Assembly: GCA_964016885.1 (NCBI GenBank)
Contig: OZ024746.1
Coordinates: 66,774,001 to 66,838,000, forward strand
DNA: 64,000 nt
Direction: 5' to 3'
Source of the DNA: Eledone cirrhosa
Lineage: Eukaryota
Under the pieces are notes generated by a model. It was given only the letters and a program-made list of their open reading frames with translations, had not been told where the DNA came from and did no database searches. Of this stretch, positions 1,596 to 58,317 are shown piece after piece (positions within the stretch are counted from its first letter, which is position 1; each line of letters starts with the position of its first letter). A program made the position numbers and the translations under genes.

Positions 1596-1627
<32 letters not shown>

Positions 1628-1703
1628 AAAGTAGCGAAACAAACGGTTATTAAACAATTTTCTAAATAAATTAAAAAATGTTTAAATAATCACCTGTTCA
1701 GAT

Positions 1704-1784
1704 GCTGTTACCGACGGTTTCATCATTCCGAAAGATTGGAAATCCAACGAATTTCCAATGGAAAGGAATGAATCTTCAGACAGC
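1704..1784 (-). ncRNA. Type I hammerhead ribozyme (also at 2161-2241 and 2618-2698)
   Basis: Minus strand: stem I GCUGU/ACAGC, CUGAAGA, long stem II UCAUUCC...GGAAUGA with inner hairpin AUUGGAAAU/AUUUCCAAU, GAAA, stem III ACC-GUC-GGU, GUA cleavage triplet. Confidence 0.88.
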
Positions 1785-3067
1785 CCTATTTCCACGCTAT
1801 AAGGTATAGCAAGTAAATATTATGCTCCCTGCCCAACGCATGCGGTCAAGCCGTTAAAGTGACACACACGCAAATCAGGTCGCTGATAAAAGCTGGATAT
1901 TATAAACATGTCGAATTGCCACTAAAATTAGCGGCATTATTCAATGTTTTGTTCTCTACGTAAGGAGAATAAATTATAGAAGTGGATGGATACCTCAACA
2001 GGTACAATGTACTTGTAGAAATATTCAAGTTGTTTATAATACATGTGGTTCAATGGCACTAATTCGAGATACCAGAACAATATAAAAGTAGCGAAACAAA
2101 CGGTTATTAAACAATTTTCTAAATAAATTAAAAAATGATTAAATAATCACCTGTTCAGATGCTGTTACCGACGGTTTCATCATTCCGAAAGATTGGAAAT
2201 CCAACGAATTTCCAATGGAAAGAAATGAATCTTCAGACAGCCCTATTTCCACGCTATAAGGTATAGCAAGTAAATATTATGCTCCCTGCCCAACGCATGC
2301 GGTCAAGCCGTTAAAGTGACACACACGCAAATCAGGTCGCTGATAAAAGCTGGATATTATAAACATGTCGAATTGCCACTAAAATTAGCGGCATTATTCA
2401 ACGTTTTGTTCTCTACGTAAGGAGAATAAATTATAGAAGTGGATGGATACCTCAACAGGTACAATGTACTTGTAGAAATATTCAAGTTGTTTATAATACA
2501 TGTGGTTCAATGGCACTAATTCGAGATACCAGAACAATATAAAAGTAGCGAAACAAACGGTTATTAAACAATTTTCTAAATAAATTAAAAAATGATTAAA
2601 TAATCACCTGTTCAGATGCTGTTACCGACGGTTTCATCATTCCGAAAGATTGGAAATCCAACGAATTTCCAATGGAAAGAAATGAATCTTCAGACAGCCC
2701 TATTTCCACGCTATAAGGTATAGCAAGTAAATATTATGCTCCCTGCCCAACGCATGCGGTCAAGCCGTTAAAGTGACACACACGCAAATCAGGTCGCTGA
2801 TAACCACATGTATTATAAACAACTTGAATATTTCTACAAGTACATTGTACCTGTTGAGGTATCCATCCACTTCTATAATTTATTCTCCTTACGTAGAGAA
2901 CAAAACGTTGAATAATGCCGCTAATTTTAGTGGCAATTCGACATGTTTATAATATCCAGCTTTTATCAGCGACCTGATTTGCGTGTGTGTCACTTTAACG
3001 GCTTGACCGCATGCGTTGGGCAGGGAGCATAATATTTACTTGCTATACCTTATAGCGTGGAAATAGG

Positions 3068-3148
3068 GCTGTCTGAAGATTCATTTCTTTCCATTGGAAA
3101 TTCGTTGGATTTCCAATCTTTCGGAATGATGAAACCGTCGGTAACAGC
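3068..3148 (+). ncRNA. Type I hammerhead ribozyme (inverted copy of the array HHR)
   Basis: GCTGT-CTGAAGA-TTCATT...AATGAT-GAAA-CCGTCGG-TA-ACAGC; predicted cleavage after 3143. Confidence 0.88.
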
Positions 3149-3327
3149 ATCTGAACAGGTGATTATTTAATCATTTTTTAATTTATTTAGAAAATTGTTT
3201 AATAACCGTTTGTTTCGCTACTTTTATATTGTTCTGGTATCTCGAATTAGTGCCATTGAACCACATGTATTATAAACAACTTGAATATTTCTACAAGTAC
3301 ATTGTACCTGTTGAGGTATCCATCCAC

Positions 3328-3374
<47 letters not shown>

Positions 3375-3383
3375 AACTGACTA

Positions 3384-3439
3384 ACTGCCTGATGAGGTTA
3401 TAGCCATTCAATGGCTATCATCGAAATTTATATAGCAGT
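3384..3439 (+). ncRNA. Minimal type I hammerhead ribozyme in a ~110-bp insert (3373-3484) between two (TA)n tracts
   Basis: ACTGC-CTGATGA-GGTTATAGCCATTCAATGGCTATCATC-GAAA-TTTATA-TA-GCAGT, followed at once by AATAAA. Confidence 0.85.
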
Positions 3440-3479
3440 AAATAAAGGATATGAGTTCATGTAATTGACTTATGTTTCG

Positions 3480-3522
<43 letters not shown>

Positions 3523-7078: not shown

Positions 7079-7111
<33 letters not shown>

Positions 7112-7115
<4 letters not shown>

Positions 7116-7339
7116 ATCATAATAAATTTGAAGACTAAAATCCAAAGAGGGTTCGATAAGGATAAATATATATCAAATATATAAGAACCGTAGACCAAAT
7201 ATTTATTAAAATAACAGATTAAAGTTTAAGCAAAGAATCGCTGCTTTCACCCTTAATGGGATTTTCTGAGTTTCAGAAGATCCCGTTAAGGGTGAAAGCA
7301 GCGATTCTTTGGTTAAACTTTAATCTGTTATTTTAATAA

Positions 7340-7342
<3 letters not shown>
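7112..7342. mobile_element. Fold-back insertion (inverted arms ~7199-7269/7273-7342); family also at 35518-35688 and 36385-37445
   Basis: Near-perfect palindrome between (TA)n tracts; contains the HHR-like string CAGAAGA-TCCCGTTAAGGGT-GAAA. Confidence 0.8.
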
Positions 7343-7372
<30 letters not shown>

Positions 7373-8923: not shown

Positions 8924-9331
8924 CTTGCTCACACTGAAGTTTCTTTCGGAAGTTATGCAGGTACTTAATTTATAAAACTTATTAGAGTGTTTTAACACAA
9001 TCGTTAGGTCGTGATATAAGAAATATTAATTTTTTAGATGATTTATGTAAATAGCTAATTATGATTATTAAAGACACGTGAGACATCTTTGACAAATTCT
9101 AATTTATCGCAGTACTGTGAAAACCCTAGACACGTTTCAGTATTATCAGGTGACATAAGTAGAGTATACTATTACCAATATTATAAATCTAATTATAACT
9201 GAATTAGAAATATATGAAACATCAGTCATCAACGTCAGTATAACAGATTCAGTCAACGAGAAAGGTGAAGGGTTGAAGACATTTATCTAACATAAAATGT
9301 AACATGTACTGATAATATTGGAACCAAAAAT

Positions 9332-9514
9332 GGCGAATTGGCAGTATCGGTAGAGGGTCGGACGCCATGCTCTCCAGCATAGTTACGTCCCTTTACGGTC
9401 TGAGTTCAAATCCCGTCGAGGTTAACTTTGCCTTTCAACCTTACCGGGTCGATAAAATAAAGTACCAGTAATGAACTGGGTAATTGCTGGTCTTGTGCCA
9501 AAAGTAGAAACAAT
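9332..9514 (+). mobile_element. Full-length SINE with 16-bp target-site duplication
   Basis: Complete family sequence; TATTGGAACCAAAAAT at 9316-9331 and 9515-9530. Confidence 0.92.
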
Positions 9515-11988
9515 TATTGGAACCAAAAATATAATAAGAAAAGAATATATCAATGCGTTTTGATATTAAAGAATACATCAATGCGTTTTGATTCAAATAT
9601 TTTATGATACATATGTTCTTTGACATTTGCATTAAGTATGTCTCGTAGCCTGATAAACATTTCCTGTAATGTGCATATTAATAATATACATTCATAATAC
9701 AAAATATTGATACATAGGAAATGTAAATATGACTGCACATAACTCTTGTCGTAGCATTCCTGGTTCATTTATTTAAATAATTGAAACTTTCGCTTGACAT
9801 AATATGAATTTACCTAATCTACATAATTATATCATAGTTCTTGTCAGCTTAGCATTTTGCAAACAAGTGGTGTGTGAAGTATTAAGCAAATTCAATTGAC
9901 GGACCAACTAATGTAATATAGCCGTAGGAGATTGCAATGATTTTAATGCTATTTGGTTTTACTAAAAAAGGTAAGAAAATGAAATGTAGGACAATGTGTT
10001 CATTTGTTGATTAACGTTTAGGTTATAGTCTTTTAGCTTGTAATTTTTTTTTTATAAAAGCTATTTGCAAATGGAAACTAATATATTGCTTGAATTAATT
10101 TATACACGAAGTATTAAGAAAATGGTATTTTGCCGTAATTTGATAATACGGATTGGATTTTCTACTTTCCCCTTTAATTATGTTAGATACATAAATGTCT
10201 TTTTTGCATTAGCAAATGTCTAAATGTGGTAAACAAAAGAGAAATATTGCGAAGGTGCCGCAGCCTTAGTGTCAGATCAGAAACTAAAATGTTTTATTAT
10301 GTATTGAATGCAAGACCTTCATTAATATGGGTAAGTTTTTATTGGAATTAAACAAAGGAATGTTTTACATGATGATACATGATGCGATGTTATATTTAGA
10401 ATATATTAAAATACATACAATAACAATATATAACTATGCATTGAACATAGTAGAGAGAAATTCCCTTTTACCTATTATTTATGGCTAAAATGTATATGAG
10501 CCCACAATAATTTTGAGACTTCACAAAATAAGTGGGAAGGAAATCGAATATAATGTAAGGAAAAAATAACACAAGGCATTTTATTAAAGAATGAAAAGAT
10601 TTGAATGCATCTTTCTTATGGTATGTATCATTTTATAATTAACAAGTTTGGTTAGATTGTAGTGTCGAGTTAAAGTCCTTTTATCTACTTTCTATGCAAA
10701 TCCATGAAATCTGGAAAATGTTCAGTGGTGTGAACTCCCAGCAGCGTGTATAATAATTAAGAACATAACATTATTTTTGTGGGACATTTCAAAATAATAC
10801 ATGTTGCAGCACAGGGCCGGTTGTAGTATAGTGTTCTTCCCCCATTATCCGATGTTTGAGATGCAATCGAGAAACAATAGATGTGATAATTACCCATTTC
10901 GTTAATATATTTTGTACCCCGAAATGTATATATCTCCAGTGCAGAGATAGCGTGTCTATGCTTACATATTAAGTTGATGTTTGCACATTAAATAAATGTA
11001 CATATAACGTAGATAAAGCACAGGCCACTCTTGCAGCAGAACTGACATGAACAGCCATAGACATTACACATTTTACCTGGCGTTTGCAAAGTTGTTATGT
11101 GTGTCTGTTCCGTCCACATATACTTGAAGGTAAATAGTAAATCGGCTTATAACTTCTTATGAAAAATACCATTAGTAACATTTGCCGATTTCTCTCATTC
11201 ACATATCAATACGTTTTCTGACAGCATCTTAATTACCTGATATTCTACGGCATTGTGTGTTTCTTAAATATAAGACTAATCTAGCGAAGCTGTTCTGAAA
11301 GTCATCGTGTAGAAAGTGTCATGTGGTTTATCTAGAGGTTATATTTGCCTAGCGAGGCTAAATATATGTTCATTAACTGTTTGTTATTTATCTCGAGAAA
11401 CACTGTCTGTGTTTATATCAACGCTTCAGTTCTATAATAAAATCTTTAAAATGTTATAGATCTTCCCATTTAAAGAGACAATTTTCTGAGACAGATTACG
11501 ACATATCTTCATATTAGAAATAACGTAAATCTATTGAAATGAAAGGTGTCTTCAGTAAAATGTATGAATTAAAATTAAAAACTCCCCATTAAAAATGTGC
11601 ACATCTGATACAAATTATCAACACCAGGGCAATGTCACAAATAAAAGATGAATCAAAGATCACTACCTGAGAACGTCATATCTTTATGAATAATACTGGA
11701 AATAAAAATACTAAATTGGCGATTAAAGTGTGCTGAAGGGACGGTAGAATTGTACTTAAGGAGTTAGTAATAGAAGATATAGGAAGTCAACATGTGAAAG
11801 AAGTATTATCCAGTATTTTTCATAAGGAAAAGATAACTAAACAACAAGCAGAGTTGGTTTCTGTTAAATAAATTATATTGGGGAGAAGTAAAACTAAAGT
11901 AAGACAACTCCACAGCCACCACAACTTCTACAACAAAAGAAAACATTAACAAAAATAAGTTCAATGACCATCTACACTGCATGCCAAT

Positions 11989-12071: not shown

Positions 12072-14319
12072 AAAAACATTAAAAAGAAGAAGACGAATAA
12101 ATGCTTAATATTAACGAATTTCATCAAATATATTTCTTCTGTACATTTCAAAAAATATCCTTCAATCATTATGATGTCATTAGGAGTGGATTAGCAAATA
12201 CTGTTTTGCACTCTGCGGAATTACTTTATACAATGTCATTAATTTTCATTTAAAAAATGCTATATGTAATTATATTACGAAATATGACAGCCATCACTAG
12301 TTAGCTCATGCTTTAGAGATAGTGAGATGCATTGGAAGAGAGAATTAGAAAGAGATGAGAGAAAGAGAGAGATGTGATTGGTATGAAGAGAGAATAATTC
12401 ATTATAATCATATGGTTTAGATTTGAAAATTTCAGGAAAATATATTCTTTAAAGGGCATGTTTTGTTGTTCCAGCATCCATTACCCTATCATTTTAAAAC
12501 ATATATATCGAGAGTGTGCCTCATATATTTGTATGTTTTCATGGAGATTTGATTCCTACTACTAGTTGGTTAAGTGATGGCGTCAGTATCACCGCATAGG
12601 CTGAAACAATTAATTAATTTTTAAGTAACACTGCCTCTAAGAATTGTTTGTCTAATATGTAGCTAAGACGATATAGTCCCTCAAATGTACAAACCTATTA
12701 ATTGATTGCTATTTAACTCTGGTCTATGAAGCTGTTTTCAAAAGGAATACACAATGTTTCTTTATTGATAGGACAGCGATCTATAAGAATTCGTATTTCT
12801 ATTGATGAGTGTTGTACAATTTTCTGATCCGGTACATTGGCAGCCACGCCACTTACAATTTAGTGAACAACTCGAGTACCTCTGTTTGGATATGAGTTGG
12901 ACATATGTAAACACCACACAATATTAACGCTACATTTTCACTTTAATTTACGTTTCCTCATTTTCCTACTATGTAAATTATTTCTAAAGAGTGAAACTAC
13001 GGAATCATTTTTAAAATTGCACGTGCCATTCATTCATCACATGTGTGGCGTTTTACTTGAGTAAAAATGAAACCAATATTTTAACGACATTGCATACAAA
13101 ATCTGATTGAAAGTACCATATAGTCGATTGAAGCACTCCATAGTAAGTGCATATCGTTGATGATTGGAAATGATTACTTGGCATAGCATGAGTGTGTGAG
13201 GTGCTGGATAAGTACACGAACTTGCTACTTATTTTCTATTGTAATATTCATAAAACATTTCATCGTTTTGGTAACATTGATTCCTTAATCATGATTGTAG
13301 AGGATGGGGGTAATAGAAAATAGGGAGATGGTTACGTTATTGATAATACTTAATGAGTCTGTGATTAGAAATTGGTCTGACACCTTCGGGTGGAGGTATA
13401 TTTCTTTAAAAAAAAAAAGAGCTTTACTTAATGAGGTTTAGAAATTAACATAATTTGATGTTCATCCAATTATTACTATTAGAAATACTGTCAGTCATCG
13501 GGTGACTGCAATATCGTTTTTAGCACATGATAGGTGATTAACCTGGAACTCCTATAAAATACAGATTTTGCATAAATCATGCAATATAATGAATAATTAT
13601 AACGATTTTATTGACCTGTTTGGTATAGGGAAAGCCGTTGAAAGTGCTGTGTGAATGTCTAAACAGCAACAATCGTATATATGTATTCGACTCATACAGT
13701 ACACAAAAGAAAGCGTGCATCTTTCTAAAGTATAGAAATAACAAATATGCACCTGAAATAATTTGGGTGAATGTTTCACAATATATAAAAGATTATTGAC
13801 ATTCCTTACTAGGTTATGAATCATTTTTCATACAATAAAATTAACAATGTTGTAAATTAAACATAATGAAATAAATACCAACTATGATTGAAGTCCAAAA
13901 GCAGTAAATCAGACGATCGTAATATTGAAAACCTTTTTAATATTATATGATTATCTGACGTGAACGAATCATGTTTATTTTTACAACACTAAAATACTTA
14001 AAAGAAAATAGTTTAATAGAAATGCAAGATCAATTATTTTAACAATAAAGATAAGTCCTCAAATTGATTGCAACGTATGTTAAACATCTAATTTATAATC
14101 TTGATTAAGGAAAGGAAAATCTGATACCAAAACGACACTAGCTCAAATTGTAGGGCAAATTTAATCACTGATCAAATTTTAATATTGGGCACTCATCATG
14201 TCAACGTTACAATTATGGTTTCTGATATGATACATGTCGTTATTAGCGATCGTATTTATATATGTGGACCCGATATCAAATGTCCCTGACTCTAATTTGT
14301 TTTTCACTTTTTCATTGAT

Positions 14320-14503
14320 AATAATTGTTTCTACGTTTGGCACAAGGCCAGCAATTAACCAGTGCATTACTGGTACTTTATTTTATCGACCCCGTAGGGA
14401 TGAAAAGCAAAGTTAACCTCGACGGGATTTGAACTCAGAATGGCAAAGGCCGTAACTCTATGCGTCAAAGCATGGCGTCCGACCCTCTACCGATACTGCC
14501 AAT
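14320..14503 (-). mobile_element. SINE, same family
   Basis: Reverse complement of the family consensus. Confidence 0.88.
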
Positions 14504-14560
14504 AATATGAGGAAAAAGGTAACGGATGGATCGTATTGCATCAATAATAGAAACCATTGG

Positions 14561-14743
14561 ATTGCCAGTATCGGTAGAGGGTCGGACGCCATGCTTTCCA
14601 GCATAGTTACGTCCCTTTACGATCTGAGTTCAAATCCCGCCGAGGTTTACTTTACCTCTCATCCTTACGGGGTCGATAAAAATAAAGTACCAGTAATGCA
14701 CTGGGTAATTGCTGGCCTTGTGCCTAAAATAGAAACAATTATT
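14561..14743 (+). mobile_element. SINE, same family, head-to-head with 14320-14503
   Basis: Full family sequence. Confidence 0.88.
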
Positions 14744-14820
14744 GTTGATTTTGATAGCCAGGGGTAGCAGCTGCAGCACCAGCCCTCCAGCGGCAATAGC
14801 AGCACCAGCATCGGTAGTAA

Positions 14821-15719: not shown

Positions 15720-15965
15720 GATCATACACGATTTGTAACAATAGCCTGATACAGCGTTCCTTTGTCAGTGTTGAACATACGAACAACGATGGTTGCTGGA
15801 CACTACGGCTTAATACGGGATGTTTGATTACAAACACACCGAGCATTATAATAAATGTTCGGTGAATCCATACGTACATATATATATGTGTGCATGTATG
15901 TATATATATATATACATACTGCTGTACGTCGGTATACATATATGAATGTACGTGTACATACTTAT
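15720..15965 (+). mobile_element. Decayed copy of the 436-bp HHR element at 55059-55542
   Basis: Shared TGTCAGTGTTG...ACGATGGTTGC...TATAATAAATGTTCGGT...CCATACGTACAT...CTGTACGTC; ribozyme segment mutated or deleted. Confidence 0.7.
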
Positions 15966-16267
15966 ACCTGATACATAATCTAATATAAATCCCTCTTGTG
16001 AAATTGTTTTTATTTCCTTATTACTTATCTACCGTTGTAGACAAATTATCTGGACTACTAATGCAATTTACAATATGAGACAATGGCACTCTTCTTTCCG
16101 TCTATCTTTCTGGTTTGCTGCAATCTTTTCCCAGAGATCCACCTGAGACGTCGCTCATTCTCTTCACCCCGTGCCTTAGTCGCTAGGGATTCTTTCCCAA
16201 TTGTTTTCTTGTCCTAGTCTTATGACTTTCATAAACTTTATCCCGATATTCTTATACACACACACAT

Positions 16268-17592: not shown

Positions 17593-18025
17593 CCCGACTC
17601 TTTTCCTATTACCCACTCTACCATCCAAAGTATCGAGTACTCTGGTGCAGTATGGTCCACCTGGTTCCTTACCACAGTTCCTTCATTATATATATATATA
17701 GTTGAAAAAATGGTAGTTAAGTTCTCTTATAATGAAAATAAAAAAATAAAAAGGAACGGGACATGTGAAATGAAGGAAAAAACAAAGAAAAAGAGGATTG
17801 AAGGAAAGAACAAAAGAGATAAAGAAAGGAAGAAAATGAAGGATAAAGATCTTTAGCAGAGTTGTTTTTAGCATGAATTGTCCTTTTATCATGTGGTGTG
17901 CGTGTGTATATACGTGGGTGCAAATATTTGCATACAGGTGTGTATCAATTGATTATTCCCGTCTATTGAAGATTATTGTCGAATGGAGGACCATAAATAA
18001 AATAGTTCATTTTTCTGTCATAGGT

Positions 18026-18127
18026 AATAATTGTTTCTACTTTTGGCACAAGGCCAGCAATTTTTACAGTAGATTACTGGTACTTTATTTTATCGACCCC
18101 GTAAGGATGAAAGGCAAAGTTAACCTC
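18026..18127 (-). mobile_element. 5'-truncated SINE
   Basis: 3' half of the family on the minus strand. Confidence 0.8.
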
Positions 18128-22698: not shown

Positions 22699-24420
22699 CA
22701 TGTATATCATCATTATTATTATTATTATTATAAGGGATATTTGTATTTTTAAATTCCATTGTGTTTGTATATGTGGAACTTGTGCGGTATGTGTAAAATG
22801 CGAAGGAACGTTGATTTCTATGACTTAGGGTTATCGATGTGGACGTTATTAACAATTTATTGATTTTTGTCGACAAAATAGGCGGCTGTTCTTTTTTTAT
22901 TTTCGTTCAGTATTGAAAACTCTGTACACTTGAACAAATTATCGATATACAATCAGCGGTTTTCATGTGATGTAAAAAAAAGAATGTCACATGACAGATA
23001 TTTAGTTGGATCCCTTACTACATATCTTGACTTGTTAAATATAGCAGCCCCCATTTATTTCAAATTACATAGTCTATAAAACTTCCATGTAGCCACATGC
23101 TACTGTAGCCATAGCTACACAATATCATGAGAAAATCGGATTCTCACAGCAGGAACCACTTTCATTACATATGTATTCTATAAGAATAGATTCGGATATA
23201 AACAACAACAAAAAGATTCTGATATAAACTATAAACGTAGAGATGATATGAGAACAAGCGAATCATATGCACTAAAAGAACAGCTGAGATTCAAGCATAT
23301 GGATCTAAATGAAGCTTAAAATGTCTCAGCAGAGTGAAACGCACTTGCAGTAAAATTGTTTCGGTTACAATTATCCGTTTCGGAATAACACCAAATCCTG
23401 TTTCGAGATAATGTTTTATCTCCCATAAACACGCTGCTATATGATACTCACAACTGTGAAGTGAGATTGTATTGATTTCATTTCTGACACCATCCAGTTT
23501 TAAGAGAAGTAGTTCAAAATATAATAAATACACTTTAATTGAATTAGTGGAATTCACGCCTCAGAAGGATGACAGTTAATATACGACCTCCAGAACGGAT
23601 AATAAAGCATGATGCTGATTTGAAATGATACATGATAAAATAAGAAAGAGAAATATTTATTATATTAATATAGTACATATTTAATTGGTTATGGTGGTGG
23701 GGTGTTTGCTATTAAGTGTTAGGTTTACCCTGAAAAAGGATTTGATTTGAGTATTTGAATTTTCTCGGAAATTCAAAATTTTATTTTCACTGAAATTCAA
23801 ATTTAAAATTTCATCTGAAAAGGACTTGATGCACGAAGTAATGCAAGATGTTAAGTATATTTTTCGTCTAATCTGTACTCAGCTACTGAAATTTTGGAAC
23901 ACAGCATCTGACTATTTATTTCTATTATCATTTAGTATACACAAACACAAAGACGCACACGCACACGCCCACGCATACACACATATATACAGACACATAT
24001 AAACGCAATAATAATCCCCTCAAGTACGCACATACTAAATATATACACAACCAAACTCACACTCATTCATAAATAAACACACAGAAAAACACGCATACAC
24101 AGACTAATACAAAGGCAGTTTTATTAAAATGCACTTCATATCATACAGATAACAGTAACAATGATAGACCCGAACTCTCCGCCACGACACCCAGCCCAGT
24201 TTGGCGGTGCATTTATCTACGTATACTTAAACGTTTAGCCTCTTCTCTCTCCGACATAGATCCTTTCTTGATGAAGGACTAAATTCCGATACTTTGAAAC
24301 ATTCCTTTTACTTTTCTAACAAGCGTGAAAATAACATGAATTTCTGATAATGTATCCCTGTGTTCATCTTATTTATCTTGTATCGTGACACTAGACTGCC
24401 AGTGAGTTTGATTAAAAGAT

Positions 24421-24598
24421 AATAATTGTTTCTACTTTGGCACAAAGCCAGCAATTATCCAGTACATTACTGGTACTTTATTTCATCAAAACCGTAAAGA
24501 TGAAAGGTAAAGTTAACCTCGACGGGATTTGAACTCAGACCGTATATGGACGTAACTATGCTGGAAAGCATGGTGTCCGATCCTCTATCGATACTGCC
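24421..24598 (-). mobile_element. SINE, same family
   Basis: Reverse complement of the family consensus. Confidence 0.88.
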
Positions 24599-27335
24599 TA
24601 ATAATACATCTGTCTTTTGTCGTGAGCAACAGTGCGCCGTTTCTGCTGATAGTGAATTTCTAAATTTCCACGTCAACTCGCATAACCTAATTTTATTTAT
24701 ATTTGCGTGAGCTTAATTTCTCTTCCCGTCTCCCTCTTTCTCTCATTCCTTCACTGTCCCCCATTCCACTCTTTCCGTATTCCTCCCACTATGTCTCACC
24801 TGACTGGCACCTACCACAAGCAATTAGGCCGCAAGCTTTGTCAGTCATGATTTTTCTTCGTTCCACATTTCCCCACAGAAATCCATGTTTTTCTTGCTAC
24901 TGGTATCCATGGTGCACATATGCATGCACAATATGATGCCTATTTATTTTAAGCCATATTCCGTTAGCATTTATTTCTCCTTTTGTCAGAACCTACTGTC
25001 CTTAATTTTTTTCATTTTGTTATTGTTTCACATGAATGTCAAACATAAATCGATCATTCGATCTTTTGCACGATACTCTAACACAAGAGCAATGCCACTA
25101 TATTGTGTGACAGTGAAATAATAGCCAGGGGGTTGACATGGGAATAATGCATCTATGATTTGCCTTTTGCAACAGAGTGTATTTTATGCGGATACTGTAT
25201 TTCTGTATAAAATATCAACTTTGATAAAATAATACACACGCACACACACACACATATATATATATAAACTAATTCGATATCGAGCTATACAGAAAATGTT
25301 CACACCTCAAATCATCTCATTGACATTGAAAAACTATTCCCCATAAATTGCCGTTCAAAATCAATGTTCTTTTTAAAATATAATTAGTGGAAAAATATTC
25401 GCATTTGATAAGACGTATAAGATATTTTTGGTTTTGTGATGAAGTGCTTAATCATCGTAAAATATACAAATTCATAATAGATATCTATAGAATATCGATA
25501 TATGATTGATTTTACTAGATCCCTTAACCCACAAATAGAAAAGCTAATGCTTCCATAATAATAGATATGTTTTACTCTCAAAACTATAAAAATTTATAAT
25601 ATTTACATGGCATATTGAGAAACAAAATGATTGGTTAAGCTTCAAAGCTAAAATAAAATTCAGGTCAATGAATATGATAAAGTTATATACTATACATTTG
25701 AGAAAATTAATATGTTTGTTGCCGCTTTTGTTCGTGTATGCGGGTGTTCAATTGATATAAACATATATACATGGTAATGTTTACATGTCTATATATAAAC
25801 ATTGAATAGACACACACATACTTAAACATTGTCACATTTATGTGTTATACATTAAATTTGAAAGATTATGAATATTCTTAATTCATACTCGAGCATAATG
25901 GGAATCCTCACAATAGGTTTACATCAGACAATAACAGTTTGATAGATACTTATCTCTAAACCTTATGAGTTCTCATTAATCTAATTGTAATCATCTGTGC
26001 TCTGTCTATATACATTTTGGCATTAAATAAGCAAATTAGCACTTTCCGTCCTAATTTCTACTACATTTTTATAAATTTATCAGTTACGTTTTTCCTTTGG
26101 ATTGTTTGAAGGATAAATTATTTGATGAGGTCCCCAATTAGGGTCGAAACTTAATTAAAACAATTAATTATATATTGCAGTTTATGGGGTAATACGTAAA
26201 CTTTATGTATTTCAATGTCTATATATTCAATGTGTTAAACTCTGTACTGTATATGTTCAGTTGAAACTTAAAGCTTGATTCGGTTGCTTAGAGTATAATA
26301 TCTCGCTGAGGAATCTAAGCTAAGTGTATATCCAAAGTTCACCATTTTTTATGCATAGTCCCTAAGATGGGATATATAAGGTTATCCCTGAATCTGCTCT
26401 AAATAATCTCAGGATATTTATTTAGATGTTCAAGAATATACATACAGTTTTATTTTAGTCTTAACTAATAATCCACTCTCAGTAAGGTGAATTTTAAATA
26501 GTTTTAGGATCTAATTAGTGCGAATTACATACGTAAGATCAGGTAACAAGTATGACAAACGTTAGAAACAAATAATATAATATAGTATAGAAGACTTGTC
26601 TGTCATTTCATACCCTATGCGCAAGCATATTGTATAAAATAGGTGACAGATGATAACATTAACTTTAAATGTATATAGGCTTTAGGTATGTGCATAGAAT
26701 GATGAAATAACAAAAATGTTGAACACATTAAAACGATCAGCTGCTGTTTTTTTGATTTGTTTTTTGTATAGGGAATCGTCTCAATATACATCATAACAAA
26801 CCGATATTAACATAGATTTTCGCTCAATCATACGCTTTTTTATTAGCGCAAAGCGTACACAAAACTAATAATTGTAGCAGGCGATTAAAAACAGGGAATT
26901 AAAAATGAATTTTATTGTAAGCAGAAACATTTTCTGCTAGAACGCTTCGTCTCCGAACGATCGGCTCTTTAAACAGTCTAAATAGCTTAGTTAGCTTAGC
27001 GAGGTAGCTGATGACTAATTGGTAATCATAGCAACATACAAACATTTAATTACGACTTGTGCTCTGTTGGAAATAGTTGTTGCCGTGTAAGTCCTCATAT
27101 ATTCGACAATGATCTACGAAATCATAGTGTGCAACTGGTTACTGACATCAAATGAGTTGTATACAGATCTGCGTGAAATAATTTGGTGCGATTGGTTAAG
27201 GGGATTGACTCTTGTTCTTAGATAACCAAATATGTAAGAATGTTTTCCCGAGAATATACCACGCCGACTATATAGAGTTTGCAGACAAAAACAAATTCCT
27301 ATCTTTCAACTGAAATGCGCCTACAGCATAGTATT

Positions 27336-30284: not shown

Positions 30285-30384
<100 letters not shown>

Positions 30385-30957
30385 TAAACGGAATAGAAAA
30401 TCCTCACAATTTGTTCACAGTTGAAAAATGGTTTAATTAGGAATAAAAGAGTATTAGTGATTGTATGGGTTAGTATTCAGTTGTGGTTTTAAGTTTTTAA
30501 GTTTTTACCGGTTGCGCATTTCTAAATGCTTTTCAAAAATAATTTTGAGATAGAGTGTCCGTGCTGTTTGCTCTGATCTGATTAGTTTTGGGAATTCTAC
30601 CTGTTTTTATGTTAAAAAAGTGGCTCCAGCGTTACTTTGGTGTTGCAAAAATTCTTGTGGTCAAAACAATTTTGATTGGTCGGTAGAGGTCATGTAAATG
30701 TAAAAAATTGATTTTGCGCCAAGACTGTTTTTATGTTAAAAAAGTGGCTCCAGCGCTACTTGGTGTTTGCAAAAATTCTTGTGGTCAAAACAATTTTGAT
30801 TGGTCGGTAGAGGTCATGTGAATAAAAAATTGGTTTTGCGCCAAGATTGAGAAATGACTCTTTCACAACAAATATGTGTGTGTGTGTGTAGTAGTAGTAA
30901 GGTGTTCGATGTTGTGATAATGGTTAGCAGGGATGTGTGGCAAATGGCTATTAAGAT

Positions 30958-31048
<91 letters not shown>

Positions 31049-31367
31049 GCAGAGTAATTCGTGGTAGCAGGGATGGTCAGTAAGAATGTGTCTGAAAGCA
31101 ATGGGGGGTATTTTAGCATGTCAAAAGATATTATTCAGCTTTTGTCTTATACGGAGAAGTACGTGTGTGTGTGTATAAGTCTCTTTGTATGTTAATGTAC
31201 GCGTGTGTATGTGTGTGTATATATATATATGTGTGTGTGTGTGTGGGTGGACCAGTATGTTTTCCCCCTGGTAAAATGGTGTACATTATTCGATTTTTTC
31301 AGTAAAATCGGTTCTCTTAATAGAACATCAAACATCTTAACAATAAAAGGTGTGAAATGATATTCAC

Positions 31368-31437
<70 letters not shown>

Positions 31438-31440
<3 letters not shown>

Positions 31441-32032
31441 TGGCTGCCAACTCGTTTTCGAGTACGGCCACTACTTTATATCCATGTAGGAGAACCCCTA
31501 CCGATGCGCTGAACGAGTGTGACTTTTTAGTCCAGCCAGCCACTTGAAAACTCTGGTACAAACACTACACTTGTGACAATTATTGACACAGTGCTAGGCC
31601 CATAGTACCATGTGACGACAAGTGCAGAGAGATCTCCAGATACAAAGCAATGCCTGTGCCGTGAAGCTTTTATAGTGAGCAAAGGCATGCACAAAGCCAG
31701 TCCCACTCTCTTAACCAAGATGATATTTACCAAAAAGAAGAACAAGTCAACATCATTGGATCCCATGAGGGTTGCAGTTATTATATCAGAGTTTTCCTTC
31801 TCCTAGAATTCTGCCTTAACAAAGGCTAAGGGGTCATCTCTCCCAGTGATTTTGGATGGCCATTGACTCTTAAGAGCTCCTTTGCCCTTTGACAGGTTTT
31901 GTTTTTAATCCTGCAGGATGTCCAAAGTCACCCTCCTCACCAGAAACCTTGGTGGGGTTGCCAGTTTAGTCGCCAACGACCCGACCATGAGACAGGTTGT
32001 ACTGGGATACATGTAGCACCAAGTGGTGACCT

Positions 32033-32035
<3 letters not shown>
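31438..32035 (-). mobile_element. Secondary insertion into the (TA)n of the left PLE arm; probably an RTE-type LINE 5' UTR fragment
   Basis: Absent from the right arm; GC-richer; TTTTCCTTCTCCTAG...AAGGCTAAG and minus-strand CTGGCAACCCCA resemble RTE 5' regions (from memory). Confidence 0.5.
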
Positions 32036-32078
<43 letters not shown>

Positions 32079-32278
32079 TATATACATACATATATATATA
32101 TATATATATACACATATATTTTTTTGTGTAGCACCATAGAGCATGTGTGTTTACGTATGTCATTGTGTTTATATGTGGGTAGAGATGTGTGCTGATGTAG
32201 GTATGTATGTTGACGTGTGTATGTTGTGGGTTCGTCTTAGGGAGAAGTGTTTAGACCGGGTCCGTATTTGTTAATGAA

Positions 32279-34215
32279 GAAAGAATGGGAAGAATTAAAT
32301 AGATTAAAAACCGACAGAACCATTACAATTAAAGAGGCTGATAAAGGGAGTACAGTAGTCCTAATGGAGACAGAATTCTATATCAACTTAGCGCTCTCCA
32401 CTTTGGAAAACGAAATATACTACGAAAAGGCTGAACACTACAATCAACAGAAAATTATGAGAAACTTAAAAACTCTAATCAACCAATACAAAGAAGGACT
32501 CACTAACAAGGAATTCAGCTTCATCACAGACTTCACAAGTAAATCCAGCCTTTTCTACGGTATCCCTAAAGTACATAAAAGCGAATCAATAAGTAAGGCA
32601 TGCAAGGAAGCCACAGACATAGTCATCAATGTCCCCTCACCCAATGATCTCAAATTAAGACCTATCATAGCAGGCCCCGCTTGCGAAACGCACCGTCTTA
32701 GCAACTTCATTGATACCCTTCTCAAACCCTTCCTCAAACACATCAAAAGCTATATAAGGGACGACCTAGATATGCTCAATCACCTCCCTAATATGCCACT
32801 TTCTGAACAAACCCTACTAGTGACGTTCGATGTAGTGAACCTATACTCCAACATCCCCCACAACCTAGGAATAGAAGCTATCCAATTCTGGCTGGATAAT
32901 TTCCACAATGAACTCCCAAAACGCATCAAAAAAGAATTCGTGATAGAGGGACTCAAATTTATCTTGAAGAACAATTACTTCGTTTTCAATAACAAACCCT
33001 ACAGGCAGAAATCTGGGACCGCTATGGGAACGAAAACAGCCCCCACTTATGCCAACCTAGTCATGGGATACCTGGAAATCACCCTCTACACTAAAGTCCT
33101 AAACAAATTTGGAAACACCCTCCACTTACACATTGAAAGGAACTGGAAGCGATATCTAGATGACTGCTTCATCCTTTGGCACGAAAACATCGAAAAACTT
33201 AAAGAATTTCACACCCTTATAAATGGGCTCAACACGAATATTAACTTCACGATGGAATACAGCGATCAACAACTCCCCTTCCTCGACATCCTCATTAAGA
33301 TCCATAACAAAAAAATAGAAACAGACATATACTACAAGCCCACAGACTCCAAGCAATATCTCCCCTTCAACTCTTGCCACCCTAGACACGTTAAAATTAA
33401 TATTCCCTACAACTTAGCCAAGAGAATCTGTACTATAGTCTCCAATAAAAACATCTGCTACTTACGGCTACAAGAACTAAAGGACACACTCATAGGCAGG
33501 GACTACCCTGCATCACTAATTGACAATGGAATCCAACGTGCCCTAAAACTCAGTACCCAGGACCTTAGACACCCTAAAGTAAATCAACCGAAACTAAAAG
33601 CTCTTCCATACATCTCCACACACAACCCCCTCAACAATGAGGCCTTTGATACCATCCTCCAGAACATCCCTGTGTTGAAAAAGGACCATAGAATGAACCA
33701 AATTCTACGAACACACGATATCATAAAGAGCAAAAGACAATCCAAGTCAATGAAAAACATCCTAACACATGCCAAAGTACTGCCAACCACAACAACGAAA
33801 CCCACAGTTAAAAAAATGCGATAGACCCAACTGTGGCATTTGCATCAACCTAATAGAGGGTTCGGAATTCTATTTCAAAGACGGACAACGTTTTATAGTA
33901 AAACACAATTTCACATGTGCATCGGAAAATCTAATATATGTATTAACTTGCACAGGTTGTCGAGAACAATACATAGGCCAGACCAAAAACAGCCTCCGCC
34001 AACGCATGACTGTCCATAGATCCCAAATTAAAATTCGGGAATACAGGAAAATACCACTGAGTGAACACATTGATACCTGTGCCGCCCAAAATCATCCCAA
34101 CTTCAGAATCTTTGCCCTCTACAAATTTAAAGATAATGCCACCCACACCCAGCGCATCAGCAAGGAATCTTAATTCATTAACAAATACGGACCCCGTCTA
34201 AACACCTCTCCCTAA
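32279..34215 (+). pseudogene. PLE polyprotein: reverse transcriptase plus C-terminal GIY-YIG endonuclease, disrupted by a +1 frameshift (A7 at 33810-33816) and TAA at 34171-34173
   Basis: IKEADKG, FYGIPKVHK, LRPII, FDVVNLYSNIP, GTAMGT, RYLDD, PFLD, YYKPT; linker CDRPNCGIC; NLIYVLTCTGCREQYIGQT...RQRM..H; natural end FINKYGPRLNTSP* at 34215. Confidence 0.95.
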
Positions 34216-34618
34216 GACGAACCCACAACATACACACGTCAACATACATACGTACATCAGCACACATCTCTACCCACATATAAACACAATGACATACGTA
34301 AACACACATGCTCTATGGTGCAACACAAAAAAATATATGTGTATATATATATATGTATGTATATATATATGTGTTTATATATATATATATATAGTGAATA
34401 TATGTATGTGTATATATATATAGTGAATATCATTTCACACTTTTTATTGTTAAGATTTTTGATGTTCTATTAAGAGAACCGATTTTACTGAAAAAATCGA
34501 ATAATGTACACCATTTTACCAGGGGGAAAAAAATACTGGTCCACCCACACACACACACACATATATATATACACACACACATACACACGCGAACATTAAC
34601 ATACAAAGAGACTTATAT

Positions 34619-34668
<50 letters not shown>

Positions 34669-34765
34669 TTCTCCGTATAAGACAAAAGCTGAAAAATATC
34701 TTTTGACATGCTAAAATAGACACGTTCTTACTGACCATCCCTGCTACCACGAATTACTCTGCTAT

Positions 34766-34847
<82 letters not shown>

Positions 34848-34965
34848 ACACACTTATCTTAATAGCCATTTGACACACATCCCTGCTAACCATTATCACA
34901 ACATCGAACACCTTACTACTACTACTACACACACACATATTTGTTGTGAAAGAGTCATTTCACAA

Positions 34966-35211
34966 TCTTGGCGCAAAACCAATTTTTTATTCACATGACC
35001 TCTACCGACCAATCAAAATTGTTTTGACCACAAGAATGTTTGCAAACACCAAGTAGCGCTGGAGCCACTTTTTTAACATAAAAACAGTCTTGGCGCAAAA
35101 TCAATTTTTTACTTTCACATGACCTCTACCGACCAATCAAAATTGTTTTGACCACAAGAATTTTTGCAACACCAAAGTAACGCTGGAGCCACTTTTTTAA
35201 CATAAAAACAG
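34966..35211 (+). promoter_or_regulatory. Duplicated ~122-bp module in the PLE pLTR with E2F-like TTGGCGC and CCAAT motifs
   Basis: Two tandem copies starting 34966 and 35088, mirrored at ~30600-30846; related single module at 7684-7800. Confidence 0.45.
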
Positions 35212-35453
35212 GTAGAATTCCCAAAACTAATCAGATCAGAGCAAACAGCACGGACACTCTATCTCAAAATTATTTAGAAATGTGCAACCGGTAAAAACTT
35301 AAAAACTTAAAACCACAACTGAATACTAACCCATACAATCACTAATACTCTTGTATTCCTAATTAAACCATTTTTCAACTGTGAACAATTTGTCAGCATT
35401 TTCTATTCCGTTTACCAATATATAATAACTTGTGTGCTACACCTCTATTCTTT

Positions 35454-35522
<69 letters not shown>

Positions 35523-35699
35523 TAAAATAACAGATTAAAGTTTAAGCAAAGAATCGCTGCTTTCAACATTAATGGGATTTTCTGAAATATTTTAATAATT
35601 ATTGGCTCTAGGGTTCTTATATATTTGATATATATTTATCCTTGTCGAGTCCTCTTTAGATTTTATCTTCACATTTATTATTATTACTATATATATATA

Positions 35700-36031
35700 T
35701 ATCATATATCATATATTGAGTTATCAACTCAAAAGAGTATTTTACAATTAAATACCTCAAAGAAGGGAATATTTCCGAGCCGTGTAAAACAAAAATGAAT
35801 ATATGAGAGGGATGAACACCGATACAAGTATACATGTGTTCGAATTGTAAATGACCAAGTTAGCTAGGTTGAAAAATACTAATTGCCAAATATTGGTTTG
35901 TTATTTATATTGATTTATTACTTTAAATCGAGACAGGCAAACCATAGTATTCTAAATTAGTATTGTTCGAACTTGGTCATTTACAATTCGAACACATGTA
36001 TAGTTGTTCATCCATCTCATATACTCATTTG

Positions 36032-36286: not shown

Positions 36287-37513
<1,227 letters not shown>

Positions 37514-43460: not shown

Positions 43461-43465
43461 TGCTT

Positions 43466-44047
43466 GATCAAATGTGATTAGTTGAGATAATATAAGATGA
43501 TAATAGTTATGTCAAGTTTATACATCTTAATAATAAATAATCTGTGTATCAGAGTTACAGAACCTTCAATTCACTTACAGGTTCAAGCCACGTGGCATAG
43601 TCCATTGTTTATCTGTGCGGTCATGCGCTTTTGTTTTTGACACCACAGCAGATGCACAAGTTCGTAAATTCCAATGCAGATAGAAATCTATTTTTGCTCA
43701 CCCGGACATTGACGGAGGATCCAATATTCCTAGTTCAATATGTGTGTGGTGTTATTTTGGTCGCACAAATCAATCACTTGGTTCAATATTATGGAGTATG
43801 GTTTTCTGGTCTTCGTAACAGTGTCAGATATACAACCACTGACACTGTTACGAAGACCAGAAAACTGTGGTGTCAAAAGCAAACGCGCATGACCGCACAG
43901 ATGAACAATGGACTATGCCACGTGGCTTGAACCTGTAAGTGAATTGAAGGTTCTGTAACTCTGATACACAGATTATTTATTATTAAGATGTATAAACTTG
44001 ACATAACTATTATCATCTTATATTCTCTCAACTAATCACATTTGATC
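43466..44047. mobile_element. Fold-back element with ~185-bp inverted arms and a nested 27-bp-arm hairpin (43801-43865)
   Basis: 43466-43649 is the near-perfect reverse complement of 43865-44047. Confidence 0.88.
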
Positions 44048-44646
44048 ACATTTGATCATATTTCCCTATCCCGTTTTCTCCCCCCATAATTATAATATTT
44101 TTATTTTTATTTGAAAAAATCGGTTGTTTTACATTGCGTTTTCCCCTCCAAATATTCGCTTATATTTCTTTATATATTCTCTATATATTTTTTTACATAT
44201 ATATTTTTTATCTTTATTATTTCCACTTTTATCCTCCTTTATATTTTACCTTATTCTTACTTTTATACATTATTATAGTGTAATCCTCCCCATGCCTTAT
44301 TATACATTATTAATTGTAGATTATTATTATTACTCTTTTTCCATTTCTAATTATCTCATGTACTTTCTCCTCCGTTATATATATATATATTGTATGCCCT
44401 TTGTGTTTGTGTAGCCTCTGCACACCCTCTGCACCATACTATCGACGCCACCCCATCTATGGTTCAGCTAACCACTCGACTCCCGGGAATGAATATGGCC
44501 GCAGCTAGTAAAAAAGGACCCACACTGCACCCTCCCGCACCAAAATTAGACTTATCGTCCCCTACTTTTGCTCTTTACTCTCTTTACTCTTTGTTCTTGA
44601 ATGTTTGGTTGGTAGAGTCCATAACACCAATCAAACCCCTTTTATA

Positions 44647-46224: not shown

Positions 46225-46764
46225 AATAGGGAGATATAAGGAGAGAGATGGTTAGATAGATAGATAAATAGATAGATAGATAAGCGTGTGCTGAGTCTTG
46301 AGTGCGTGCATAAATGGAGCCACAGTAAAATGAGGGGATTAAGGGTTGGAATTTATGTGAATAAGTATCATTCTAAGTCTATGTTTGAATGACAGACTGA
46401 ATAAAAATGTTTTTTTTTTGTTTTTTGTTCTTAAATCCTCTAATGTCAAGCATTAAAGCAAACACATCTAGTACCAGAGTCGGAATTGCTATCAAAATCT
46501 ATATAAATATATATATATATATGTGTGTGTGTGAGTATCTATATAAAAAGATATATGATTGTGAGTGTGTCTGTCTGCAGAGGCATGCAACATACCTCCG
46601 TCGTTTCCGAAGACAAAGGATACAAACGTTGACAAGACTAGTCCATTTAGTTTCAAATGAAATACGTTTTCAAGCTGAGTGAACAGCAGTAACATTACAT
46701 AGAGCTCTTTACGCAGTCAAAGGACGGGACTCCTAAACGCGAGCGTAGAACAAAGAAGGAGTGG

Positions 46765-46938
46765 TAAGATACCTCGTGGACCAAAACGCCCCAGAGTACT
46801 CGATACTTAGGGTAGTAGAGTGGGTAATATGAAAAGAGTCAGGACCCCGTCGGCTGAGCTCTGGCCGTTTCGACAGCTAGATGCGAACGGATCTAGCTGT
46901 CGAAACGGCCGGATCTCAGCCGTCGGGGTGCTGACTTT

Positions 46939-46945
<7 letters not shown>
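46765..46945. mobile_element. Short fold-back fragment of the 16.5-kb family (3' half of HHR only)
   Basis: Palindrome centred ~46885 with GAAA-CGGC..GCCG-TC; tail matches 17600-17680. Confidence 0.85.
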
Positions 46946-46979
<34 letters not shown>

Positions 46980-46980
<1 letters not shown>

Positions 46981-47175
46981 CGAAGGAAATGTGGTAAGGA
47001 ACCAGATGGATCATAACGCACCAAAGTACTCAATACTTAGGGTAGTAGAGTGGGTAATAGGAACAAATAGGACCCCGACGGCTGAGCTCAAGCCGTTTCG
47101 ACGGGCTAATTCTGGACTCCAGAATTAGCCGTCGAAACGGTTTGAGCTCAGCCGTCGGGGTCCTACTTGTTCCTA
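46980..47175. mobile_element. Second fold-back fragment of the same family
   Basis: Palindrome centred ~47117, GAAACGGTTTGAGCTCAGCCGTCGGGGTCC. Confidence 0.85.
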
Positions 47176-47752
47176 TATATATATATATCTAGTAATAAGA
47201 ATATTTATATTTGTGTATGTTTAATACAATTATAAATATGGAGGGTAGTACTAAGTACTAGCCGGTTACCGGTATCACGTGTTTGCATTACACCTCACAT
47301 AACATATACCTACATTATCACCATATGTCTCTCTAACAAGTTGCACGCTACCTTAAACATTTCTAACACTTATAACATGCTTTAACATCCCACACGAAAT
47401 ATATTTATTTCAACTGCATTATAACTCTTTCTTCATACATGCCTTATTGATTGTATTGACTCCTGCATTCTGAACCCATAACATTAACTGTTCTCCAATG
47501 TTAAGATATCTTATATCTTATATCTTATGTGTATCCAATCCCACATTTTTCCTTGCTTATAACTGTTTTTCCTGTACTTGTTGCTTATACCTCTTACACT
47601 TTCAACCAGTGCTGCCTGTAATTGTGTCGTCTCAGGCATAACATCTTTTTAACTCCTGACTCTCCACGTGATATCTATGACACTAACAACAATTATGTAC
47701 GCTAAATGTTCTGAATGACTAGGATTTTAGTCATATGTTTTGACATTTCCTA

Positions 47753-47894: not shown

Positions 47895-48751
47895 GTTCTA
47901 TTTAAATTGTTGGGATACAACAAGCAAATATTTTTATATCTGATATATACAAATTATTTGAGTAAAAATACGATAAATGGAAACTATATTTATAAATCCA
48001 TATTTATTTCAAGGACACCAAGTTAAATTATGGTGTGCTTTCATCAGTTAAAATATAATATAGATCAGTTTTATAAATACATATTGACATACCCTTAAAG
48101 AATGCTACCATTTCTGTTGGAAGCTCCCGGATAGTGGGGTTATTAAATTTACTTAGTCTATTATACAAATTAGTGTCGGATATGTTTAAACCACAGTAGA
48201 TTTTAAATAAGCCGTTGGGGTATGGAAAAGGGGAAAGAAAAGAAAGAGAAAAAAGAGAAAAAAAAGAAAAGATCAAAATCTAAGAGGAAAATAAGAAAAC
48301 AAGAGAAAGAGAAAGAGAAAGAGAAAGAGAAAGAGAAGAGAAATAGAAGAAAAAAGAAAAAAGAAAAAACAGAAAAAGAAAAACAGAAAAAAGAAAAAGA
48401 AAAAAGAAAAAAAAGAAGAAAAAAAAGAAAGAGAAAGAGAAAGAGAAAGCTCTAAGTGATAGGTTGTTGTATTAGCGTAACTTTTAAGATGAAGTGAAAA
48501 AATAAATATTTATTGGATGAGTTAGGAAGAGTAAATAAGCGTGAATAGAAAATAAATAAATAATAATAACTGGAGAATTTTAACCAGTGTTTAAATATGA
48601 TTAAATGTTTAGTTTATCAATTAAATTATCAATTAAATTATTGAGATCTATACATTAAAATTGAGATCTATATATTATTAAAAGATCTATATATTATTAA
48701 AAAATCTATATATTATTAAAAAAATATATTCATATATATACATACGCACAT

Positions 48752-48785
<34 letters not shown>

Positions 48786-49252
48786 ATATACATACAGATA
48801 CATATATATACATACAATAAAAGATTTTTTATGTTTAAGATATATGAATTTTTCTAAACTTATAGATTTTTCGGAGAAATCAGAGAAAAAATCGGAGAAA
48901 AATCATTTCTATGTAATAGCAAAACAGCGTGAAGGAAATTAAATTATTTACTTATATTAAATGTTATAAATGTTAAGATAATAAAGGAAATTTAAGATTA
49001 TACAAACATTATATTATTTAATAGTAAGTTATAATTTTATAAATTTCATAAATTTTATATCTAATAAATCCACCTGTTATGTAGTTGTGACTGTTATTAT
49101 ATAAGTTTGTTTAGCATAAACCGTAAGAAATCGCTTATAACAGAGTGCATTCGAATTGTATGTATATATACATATACACAAACGCCACATAGATACACAT
49201 ACATATATGTACACATACCGGTAGACATGCATCATACATATATATATATATA

Positions 49253-49315
49253 TAACAAGGGCGGTGCCCCAGTATGGCCTCAGCCGGATGGCTGAAACAG
49301 GTAAAAGAGTAAAAT
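49253..49315 (+). mobile_element. 3' tail fragment of a second SINE type
   Basis: GGCGGTGCCCCAGTATGGCC...GGCTGAAACAGGTAAAAGAGTAAAA; family recognised from memory. Confidence 0.5.
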
Positions 49316-49320
49316 ATATA

Positions 49321-49541
49321 TATATCCAAAATTAAGATAAATTAAATGAATTCAATCTAAATCGAAATTGTGGGTGTCATGCCTTAACGGCGTGCGCCAT
49401 ATCGCCCGGAAAATAAGCTCAAAGACTTTTACAAAGTCTTTGAGCTTATTTTCCGGGCGATATGGCGCACGCCGTTAAGGCATGACACCCACAATTTCGA
49501 TTTAGATTGAATTCATTTAATTTATCTTAATTTTGGATATA
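49321..49541. repeat. Perfect 109-bp-arm palindrome, 3-nt loop
   Basis: 49321-49429 is the reverse complement of 49433-49541. Confidence 0.95.
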
Positions 49542-49974
49542 GATATATAAATATGGCTTCTTGATTGTAAAGCTAACTCTGTTGAAAGGAATTGACTGCT
49601 ATTTCTAGTTGTCGAATACCTATTCACGCCACTGAGACGAAGCCGCTGTGATGTGTAAAAACAACACGTGGTAGCGGCCAGTTGAGGATTTTGACTCGAA
49701 GTGTAAACATGGATTGCTGTATTATTGTCCTTCCTTGTTGATAATCCAATAATATCCACTTTCTCTGACTTACCATCTGATTAATTGGTGAAATATATTT
49801 CTTTAATGAAATATTATTCAGGGAAGATTAAAAGGTATCTATTTTTGAAGTTCTAGTTAACTTTATTTATTTGTTACCTACTAGCCATGCGTGGTTACAC
49901 GCTTGTAAAAATTATCTCCTGTGATTATTCATGTTTATATTTATTTATATATATGTTGATCAATTTCTAGTTAT

Positions 49975-50100
<126 letters not shown>

Positions 50101-50438
50101 GAAATATAAAGTACTTAGTATAATTAAAGTACATAATATATAAAATAAAATAAAAATGAATTATAGTTTTAAAAGGAATTACGATTTGTAAATATATTCT
50201 TACAATGTTAAGCAATATAAATTTAAAGCAATATAATTTTTAAAAATATTTTAAAATATTTTAGGATATAATTTTGAAAGAAGGATATGTCTAAAAAATT
50301 CAGTATAAAATGAATTTAAATTTTTTTTATATATAATATAATATTTAACTCTCAGTATGTTTATCTTAATTTTTATAACCATATGAGAAATTTTCAAAGA
50401 GAAACTTTCAAAAATAGGAGAAACTTTCAAAGAAAATA

Positions 50439-50640
50439 TCCAGCTTATTATGGGACCTTAAATTAAGGAACGTTAAATATTCGTTACTTTGGAATATTAT
50501 TTCAAAAGCTACTCCATTTAACTCCTCTTCCGAAAATTGCGATCTTTGTATAGAGGAAATATTCTTTATATTAAAAAGCAAAAATTCCCTGAACGTAAGA
50601 AGCAATCTTTTCAGTTGCTGCAAACATAGATTGAATATAA
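50439..50640 (+). pseudogene. C-terminus of PLE GIY-YIG endonuclease (not in the ORF track, no start codon)
   Basis: Open frame SSLLWDLKLRNVKYSLLWNIISKATPFNSSSENCDLCIEEIFFILKSKNSLNVRSNLFSCCKHR, matching the W..I..A.PY...C.LC..E...LN.RS.L...CRH pattern. Confidence 0.82.

Positions 50641-51130: not shown

Positions 51131-51226
<96 letters not shown>

Positions 51227-55564: not shown

Positions 55565-55571
<7 letters not shown>

Positions 55572-58252: not shown

Positions 58253-58317
<65 letters not shown>

Follow-up and report, generated by a model that had tools for sequence, protein, structure and literature searches.

An array of hammerhead-bearing repeats in Eledone cirrhosa that turns back on itself raises two questions on animal retrozymes, namely by which enzyme they are mobilised and whether arrays of them are inserted ready-made or grown in place. 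We analysed a window of 64,000 nucleotides (contig OZ024746.1 of assembly GCA_964016885.1, forward strand, 66,774,001 to 66,838,000), in which all positions below are counted. The element spans 1623-3334 and consists of direct 457-bp units and a head-to-head inverted block, set in a TA microsatellite. The direct repeat (1623-2803, minus strand; TRF and self-comparison) has a period of 457, 2.6 copies (2.58 head-to-tail units) and 99% matches, with its sense 3' end at 1623. The inverted arm (2802-3334, plus strand) is 533 nt long, or 1.17 monomers, contains a 76-nt direct repeat (2802-2877 / 3259-3334) and is 100% complementary to 1975-2507. An earlier sequence-only reading had described about 2.6 direct monomers followed by a more-than-monomer inverted block of about 530 bp, and these figures bear it out. 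That reading placed the limits at 1626..3333; the array stands, and its exact ends were moved to 1623-3334 because both share TATA letters with the flanking (TA)n. The left (TA)n-rich target tract lies at 1536-1627 (TRF and sequence) and the right (TA)21 tract at 3331-3372 (TRF), and both outer ends run into these tracts, sharing 3-7 TA letters with them. The hammerheads read along the minus strand in the long arm but along the plus strand in the inverted one, so that the arms meet 5'-to-5' at 2802/2803, where two letters, AA, are common to both arms and the TA repeat is absent. Both outer ends are thus sense 3' ends, located 86 nt (left) and 191 nt (right) after a predicted cut site, and the 105-nt sequence between these two end points (3230-3334, plus strand) corresponds to a 'tail'. 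Only three positions differ across the whole element (1681, 1766 and 1945). All are in copy 1, clustered within 265 nt (p about 0.06), and the monomer alignment confirms the earlier statement that the inverted block has the variants of copies 2 and 3 (3/3 positions).

We then investigated the 457-bp unit. It has a GC content of 35%, no LTR, a longest open frame of 69 codons (in the doubled unit) and no ORF encoding RT and GIY-YIG; ARAGORN detected no tRNA genes. With our own descriptor, a type I hammerhead core is found in all three direct units and in the inverted arm. The predicted motifs lie at 1704-1784 (copy 1, with one stem II variant), 2161-2241 (copy 2) and 2618-2698 (copy 3) on the minus strand, with predicted cut sites after 1709, 2166 and 2623, and at 3068-3148 on the plus strand, with a predicted cut after 3143. 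Each comprises a 5-bp stem I, the core CUGAAGA, a stem II region of 51 nt, GAAA and a 3-bp stem III; the core and the NUH cut site (CUGAAGA, GAAA, GUA) are conserved. A stricter hammerhead scan gave 10 matches in the window, against a mean of 0.05 over 20 shuffles. The Rfam hammerhead model was matched neither at the gathering score nor among the 18 matches at E<=10. At the foot of stem II, all four copies and a decayed relative described below have U.U in place of G10.1-C11.1. Thus, the earlier description of a canonical hammerhead with an extended stem II is correct as to the core and the 51-nt stem II, but not as to 'canonical', given the U.U base and the tiny helix III. The catalytic fold lies above the free ensemble by 5.6 kcal/mol alone and by 6.1 kcal/mol with 100-nt flanks, and the near-palindromic stem III allows a predicted duplex between two copies at -11.3 kcal/mol, a pairing known from dimeric animal hammerheads. 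None of the 40 variable read sites listed (of 72) falls in the 31 positions of the core, stem I and stem III, where about 2.7 would be expected, a weak difference (p about 0.06, hand estimate). A search of metagenomes with an 18-nt core pattern was discarded, as 18/18 loci were chance matches with similarity ending at 18-24 nt.

The minimal hammerheads in the pseudo-LTRs of Penelope-like elements (PLEs; available text of PMC4209133) share with the array motif the 5-bp helix I, the long helix II and a palindromic helix III suited to dimers, whereas the array lacks their conserved G10.1-C11.1 pair and has a stem II region of 51 nt. The same text reports hammerhead pairs on opposite strands, 100-700 bp apart. 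It had been proposed that one transcript across the locus could both self-cleave and form more than 500 bp of dsRNA. The 533-bp duplex does appear in the predicted fold, but the two outcomes would compete rather than occur together. In the modelled fold of the 1712-nt plus transcript, the duplex takes up the 3143 motif completely (81 of 81 nt), and one of the three motifs would keep stem I in the folded minus transcript. Right after the right TA tract lies a separate 111-nt fragment (3373-3483, plus strand), which carries a different PLE-type hammerhead (3384-3439, predicted cut after 3434) between two (TA)n tracts. A plus-strand transcript would therefore carry predicted cuts at 3143 and 3434, 291 nt apart.

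Reads indicate that the unit belongs to a large family. The stretch, whole or in part, occurs in nine of the 15 runs listed; no RNA run is recorded among them, which makes no statement on expression. Four runs were compared with one monomer (2250-2706), as contigs from which a circular RNA cannot be told. All four contain the head-to-tail joint of period 457. Run X3 alone has 184 contigs, some of them identical to the window; their summed word depths run into the thousands. The left end point with loose (TA)n ends recurs in five contigs of X3 and one of X1, the latter with a flank unlike that of the array locus. In four X3 contigs TA begins a short way upstream of the hammerhead, as would be expected of uninverted copies truncated at the 5' end. 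For the right end point no read support is displayed, and one X3 contig has 19 unaligned letters there. None of the 15 read joints listed (of 24) changes strand, and the 2802/2803 junction is not seen among them; it may have been missed because it is a single locus in a deep family, maybe absent from the sampled individuals. Starts and ends on GCATGC and AATT in run X13 (many near 2429), which we take to be restriction ends of a RAD library, were set aside as element ends. A 487-nt cyclic contig in X2 was likewise not taken as a circular RNA, since a tandem array fits equally well.

A decayed relative of the unit lies at 62557-62860 on the minus strand (71% identity over 259 nt, E 2e-25) and passes into (TA)n precisely at the homologue of position 3334. 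With about eight TATA/ATAT clusters per unit, such a shared right end would be a coincidence of about 1 in 8. After this relative, the hammerhead core of which is mutated, comes a TA-ended fold-back of 160 nt (63074-63232), the whole spanning 62557-63265. We did not count 63040-63265 as a homologue of the left end of the array, its likeness being unclear. By sequence criteria (head-to-tail units, low GC, predicted hammerheads, multiple copies), the 457-bp unit is a non-coding non-LTR retrozyme, and the array locus is one ordinary copy among many.

We found the same layout in two other elements of the window. The first is an array of 4.4 units of 593 bp with (TA)n at both ends (55565-58254, minus strand; self-comparison). 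It consists of a direct part (55565-58166) and a 93-nt inverted arm (58162-58254), with 5 nt of junction microhomology. Each full unit has a predicted hammerhead with a 57-nt stem II and a U3-A8 core variant, as described for schistosome PLEs (available text of PMC4209133). The end points of this array lie 80 and 245 nt past the cut site, which gives a tail of 165 nt. Its differences cluster in copy 4, five of six events falling within 330 nt (p about 0.005). The second is a 5'-truncated and frameshifted PLE, also with (TA)n at both ends (30371-35457, plus strand; RT 32241-33824, GIY-YIG 33766-34173). It carries an inverted copy of its own 3' region (1.3 kb, 30371-32284) with a tail of about 33 nt at one end. 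An insertion of about 600 bp (about 31439-32035) later entered the left arm, within a TA tract. The linker of the PLE has a CX4CxxC motif of the Neptune/Nematis kind, and the best matches of the element among named relatives are proteins of Octopus bimaculoides (57% and 55%). Motif scans found no hammerhead in this PLE, and its 3' region has no similarity to the 457-bp unit.

Other fold-back structures and repeats are scattered through the window. The region 48005-52435 has 1253-nt inverted arms at 94% identity, a second inverted pair (50014-50439 / 50801-51222), a near-perfect 236-nt palindrome (49314-49548) and a predicted hammerhead (52393-52441) about 50 nt before a TA tract, with a related piece at 59505-59642. 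Just left of the 593-bp array is a small hammerhead with a palindromic helix III (55237-55267), and a related stretch is found at 15750-15966. A family of pieces of about 200 nt stands between TA tracts at 7081-7363, 35515-35716, 36354-36644 and 37275-37507, some of them head-to-head or folded back. Further inverted pairs and short fold-backs with arms or palindromes of 120-184 nt, some of them TA-ended, occur at 46761-47188 and 43465-44048. A dispersed SINE-like repeat of about 190 nt is present in at least eight copies, two of them as an inverted pair; copies lie at 424-575, 1390-1532, 9326-9519, 14312-14744, 18018-18127, 24417-24606 and 60031-60225. A different reverse transcriptase fragment, likely of a LINE, occupies 63259-63959 on the minus strand (Pfam RVT_1, E 1e-14).

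These layouts recall what has been reported for PLEs. Their hallmarks are an inverted 5'-truncated copy, a tail of 30-40 bp on one side and a bias for microsatellites (available text of PMC8557442). Purified protein of one PLE cleaves and extends both strands of AT-rich DNA; two internal RNA start sites bound the tail, and mainly uncut RNA is used (available text of PMC11167929). As described in these two papers, insertions of endonuclease-bearing PLEs share with the array a partial tandem with an inverted 5'-truncated copy, a one-sided tail-like extension, a microsatellite target and a 3' end shortly downstream of a hammerhead. The array differs from them in having no ORF and in being built of whole-unit multimers. 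We therefore propose, with a probability of roughly two in three, that the element arose in one event, by PLE-type priming from both ends of a cut (TA)n tract and a join through 2 nt of microhomology. The (TA)n target, the two TA-fused outer sense 3' ends and the 5'-to-5' arms support this reading, as does the presence of the same layout in a hammerhead array and in an RT- and GIY-YIG-encoding PLE of the same window.

Under two-end priming, the retrozyme RNA would be transcribed, self-cleaved (probably by a dimeric hammerhead) and circularised by analogy with other animal retrozymes. A PLE RT/GIY-YIG protein would cut both strands of the (TA)n target, and cDNA synthesis would start at two preferred internal sites, +86 and +191 from the hammerhead cut; the intervening 105 nt would make up the PLE 'tail'. 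Since three cut sites are read through in one arm and one in the other, the template would be either a monomeric circle or multimeric RNA left uncut; from a cleaved linear monomer, no more than 86 or 191 nt could be copied without a jump of the enzyme. Two cDNAs of about 1180 and 533 nt would then be joined via the 2-nt microhomology. The spacing of the arms (a gap of 86 nt and an overlap of 64 nt, modulo one unit) was too weak to argue for twin priming on a single molecule. The outer end of the inverted block looks like an RT start site, not a stopping point, because the 71% relative also ends there in (TA)n. The earlier proposal of a single integration event from a more-than-monomer RNA is well supported by the near-identical arms, the 2-nt microhomology and the lack of TA at the junction. 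A more specific form of two-end priming, in which a PLE enzyme dimer rolls round a circular retrozyme RNA from both ends of the break and two more-than-unit cDNAs fuse head-to-head, is possible but tentative.

Several observations run counter to two-end priming. The 2802/2803 junction does not appear among the listed read joints, and displayed reads do not back the right end point. The tail of the array, at 105 nt (165 nt in the 593-bp array), exceeds the published 30-40 nt. Both ends of the array share 3-7 TA letters with the target, unlike the starts made by PLE protein in vitro, which have no homology to the target (available text of PMC11167929). The same source places the starts 111-118 nt into the ORF and the hammerhead cut at 26, about 85-92 nt upstream of them; the match of 86 nt to this lizard element is possibly a coincidence, as the distance from cut site to end is 49, 51, 80 and 245 nt for other elements in the window. 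Differences clustered in one unit per array are not expected from a single circular template; they would be explained by a multimer of mixed composition, by RNA-to-RNA jumping, by subsequent gene conversion or by misassembly. An autonomous partner PLE was not found in the window, the one PLE of which is truncated, frameshifted and without a hammerhead match.

Alternatively, priming might have occurred at the left end only, with the RT jumping after 2.58 units to the nascent cDNA and copying 533 nt back, as the sequence-only reading had inferred. AA would anneal at 2506-2507, and the product would be captured by the right TA end. Such a template switch is feasible, since the sole possible fold-back template inside the nascent strand (2507->1975) matches at 100%, the inverted block has the copy-2/3 letter at 3/3 sites and the junction has 2 nt of microhomology. 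Nonetheless, we do not favour it and regard it as rather unlikely. The sharing of alleles does not separate it from two-end priming. It requires that two paired bases hold together a loop of 294 nt (about 565 nt for the 593-bp array and about 1.9 kb for the PLE), and the point at which copying stops would have to coincide with the terminus of a diverged relative. Moreover, the inverted arm of the 593-bp array differs from its nearest possible template at 1/93 positions, where earlier copies match, and it is two-strand priming that has been demonstrated in vitro for a PLE (available text of PMC11167929).

It is improbable that a short PLE-end insertion later grew by unequal crossing-over and was inverted by DNA repair or by a second insertion. 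Local amplification of retrozymes has been discussed (available text of 10.64898/2026.07.22.740005), and the clustering of differences in one unit per array suggests later recombination or conversion. Against this, each arm is longer than one unit and has a TA-fused family terminus at its end, TA is absent at the junction and the 533 nt common to the arms are identical. For the inverted layout, retrotransposition is needed in any case, although the long arm may still have grown by one unit. We consider an assembly or sequencing artefact, such as a chimeric fold-back read, very improbable. PLE structures are known to trouble assemblies (available text of PMC8557442), the arms are 100% identical and the junction is absent among the listed read joints. 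On the other hand, the right flank past the TA tract is unique and does not mirror the left flank, and inverted pairs of the same layout with arms at 92-94% identity exist in the window (30371-35427 and 48005-52435), a divergence that a read chimera cannot produce. Finally, 5' inversions with short microhomology are known for L1, and an RT fragment of another retroelement is present at 63492-63959, but twin priming by a LINE-type enzyme is hardly credible, as a poly(A) end is absent, a target duplication is not discernible, internal 3' ends recur and a nearby PLE has the identical layout.

Comparison with metazoan non-LTR retrozymes places the unit among them. As described in the available text of PMC7229834 and 10.64898/2026.07.22.740005, these share with the array non-coding low-GC tandem units with one type I hammerhead each, a short near-palindromic helix III, a multi-copy family and coexistence with PLEs. 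The unit length of 457 bp compares with 150-450 bp as typical in the former and 51-972 bp in the latter. The inverted more-than-unit arm, the (TA)n target and the two fixed 3' ends are seen in the array but not in the text available from either source, and the very long stem II and its U.U base also set the array hammerhead apart. In Xenopus, one of nine retrozyme elements cleaved (available text of 10.64898/2026.07.22.740005). Non-autonomous Chlamys PLEs such as MRC1 also form non-coding multicopy head-to-tail insertions, but they are found in green algae and belong to a clade without canonical hammerheads (available text of PMC8557442). O. vulgaris has 336 recently active PLE insertions, and the words 'ribozyme' and 'hammerhead' are absent from the main text of that report (PMC13282606). 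In literature that covers subscription journals thinly, we found no hammerheads reported in octopus and, in main texts, no PLE signature of inverted copy and tail on retrozyme arrays. The retrozyme unit type and the PLE layout are known, and their combination on a retrozyme array, for which we found no paper, may be new.

PLEs have been named as candidate movers of retrozymes (available text of PMC7229834), and a later argument for them from co-occurrence and homology leaves the mechanism undecided (available text of 10.64898/2026.07.22.740005). Young arrays with the PLE signature at both ends and with arms longer than one unit provide evidence from the insertion site itself for ready-made multimers driven by PLEs, and the ends of this array define the RNA sites +86 and +191 from the cut site. 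If an enzyme dimer does roll on circular RNA, the array would be genomic proof of rolling-circle reverse transcription of an animal circular RNA by a PLE, and several young families (457 and 593 nt), with tails of 105-165 nt, would be active in this genome.
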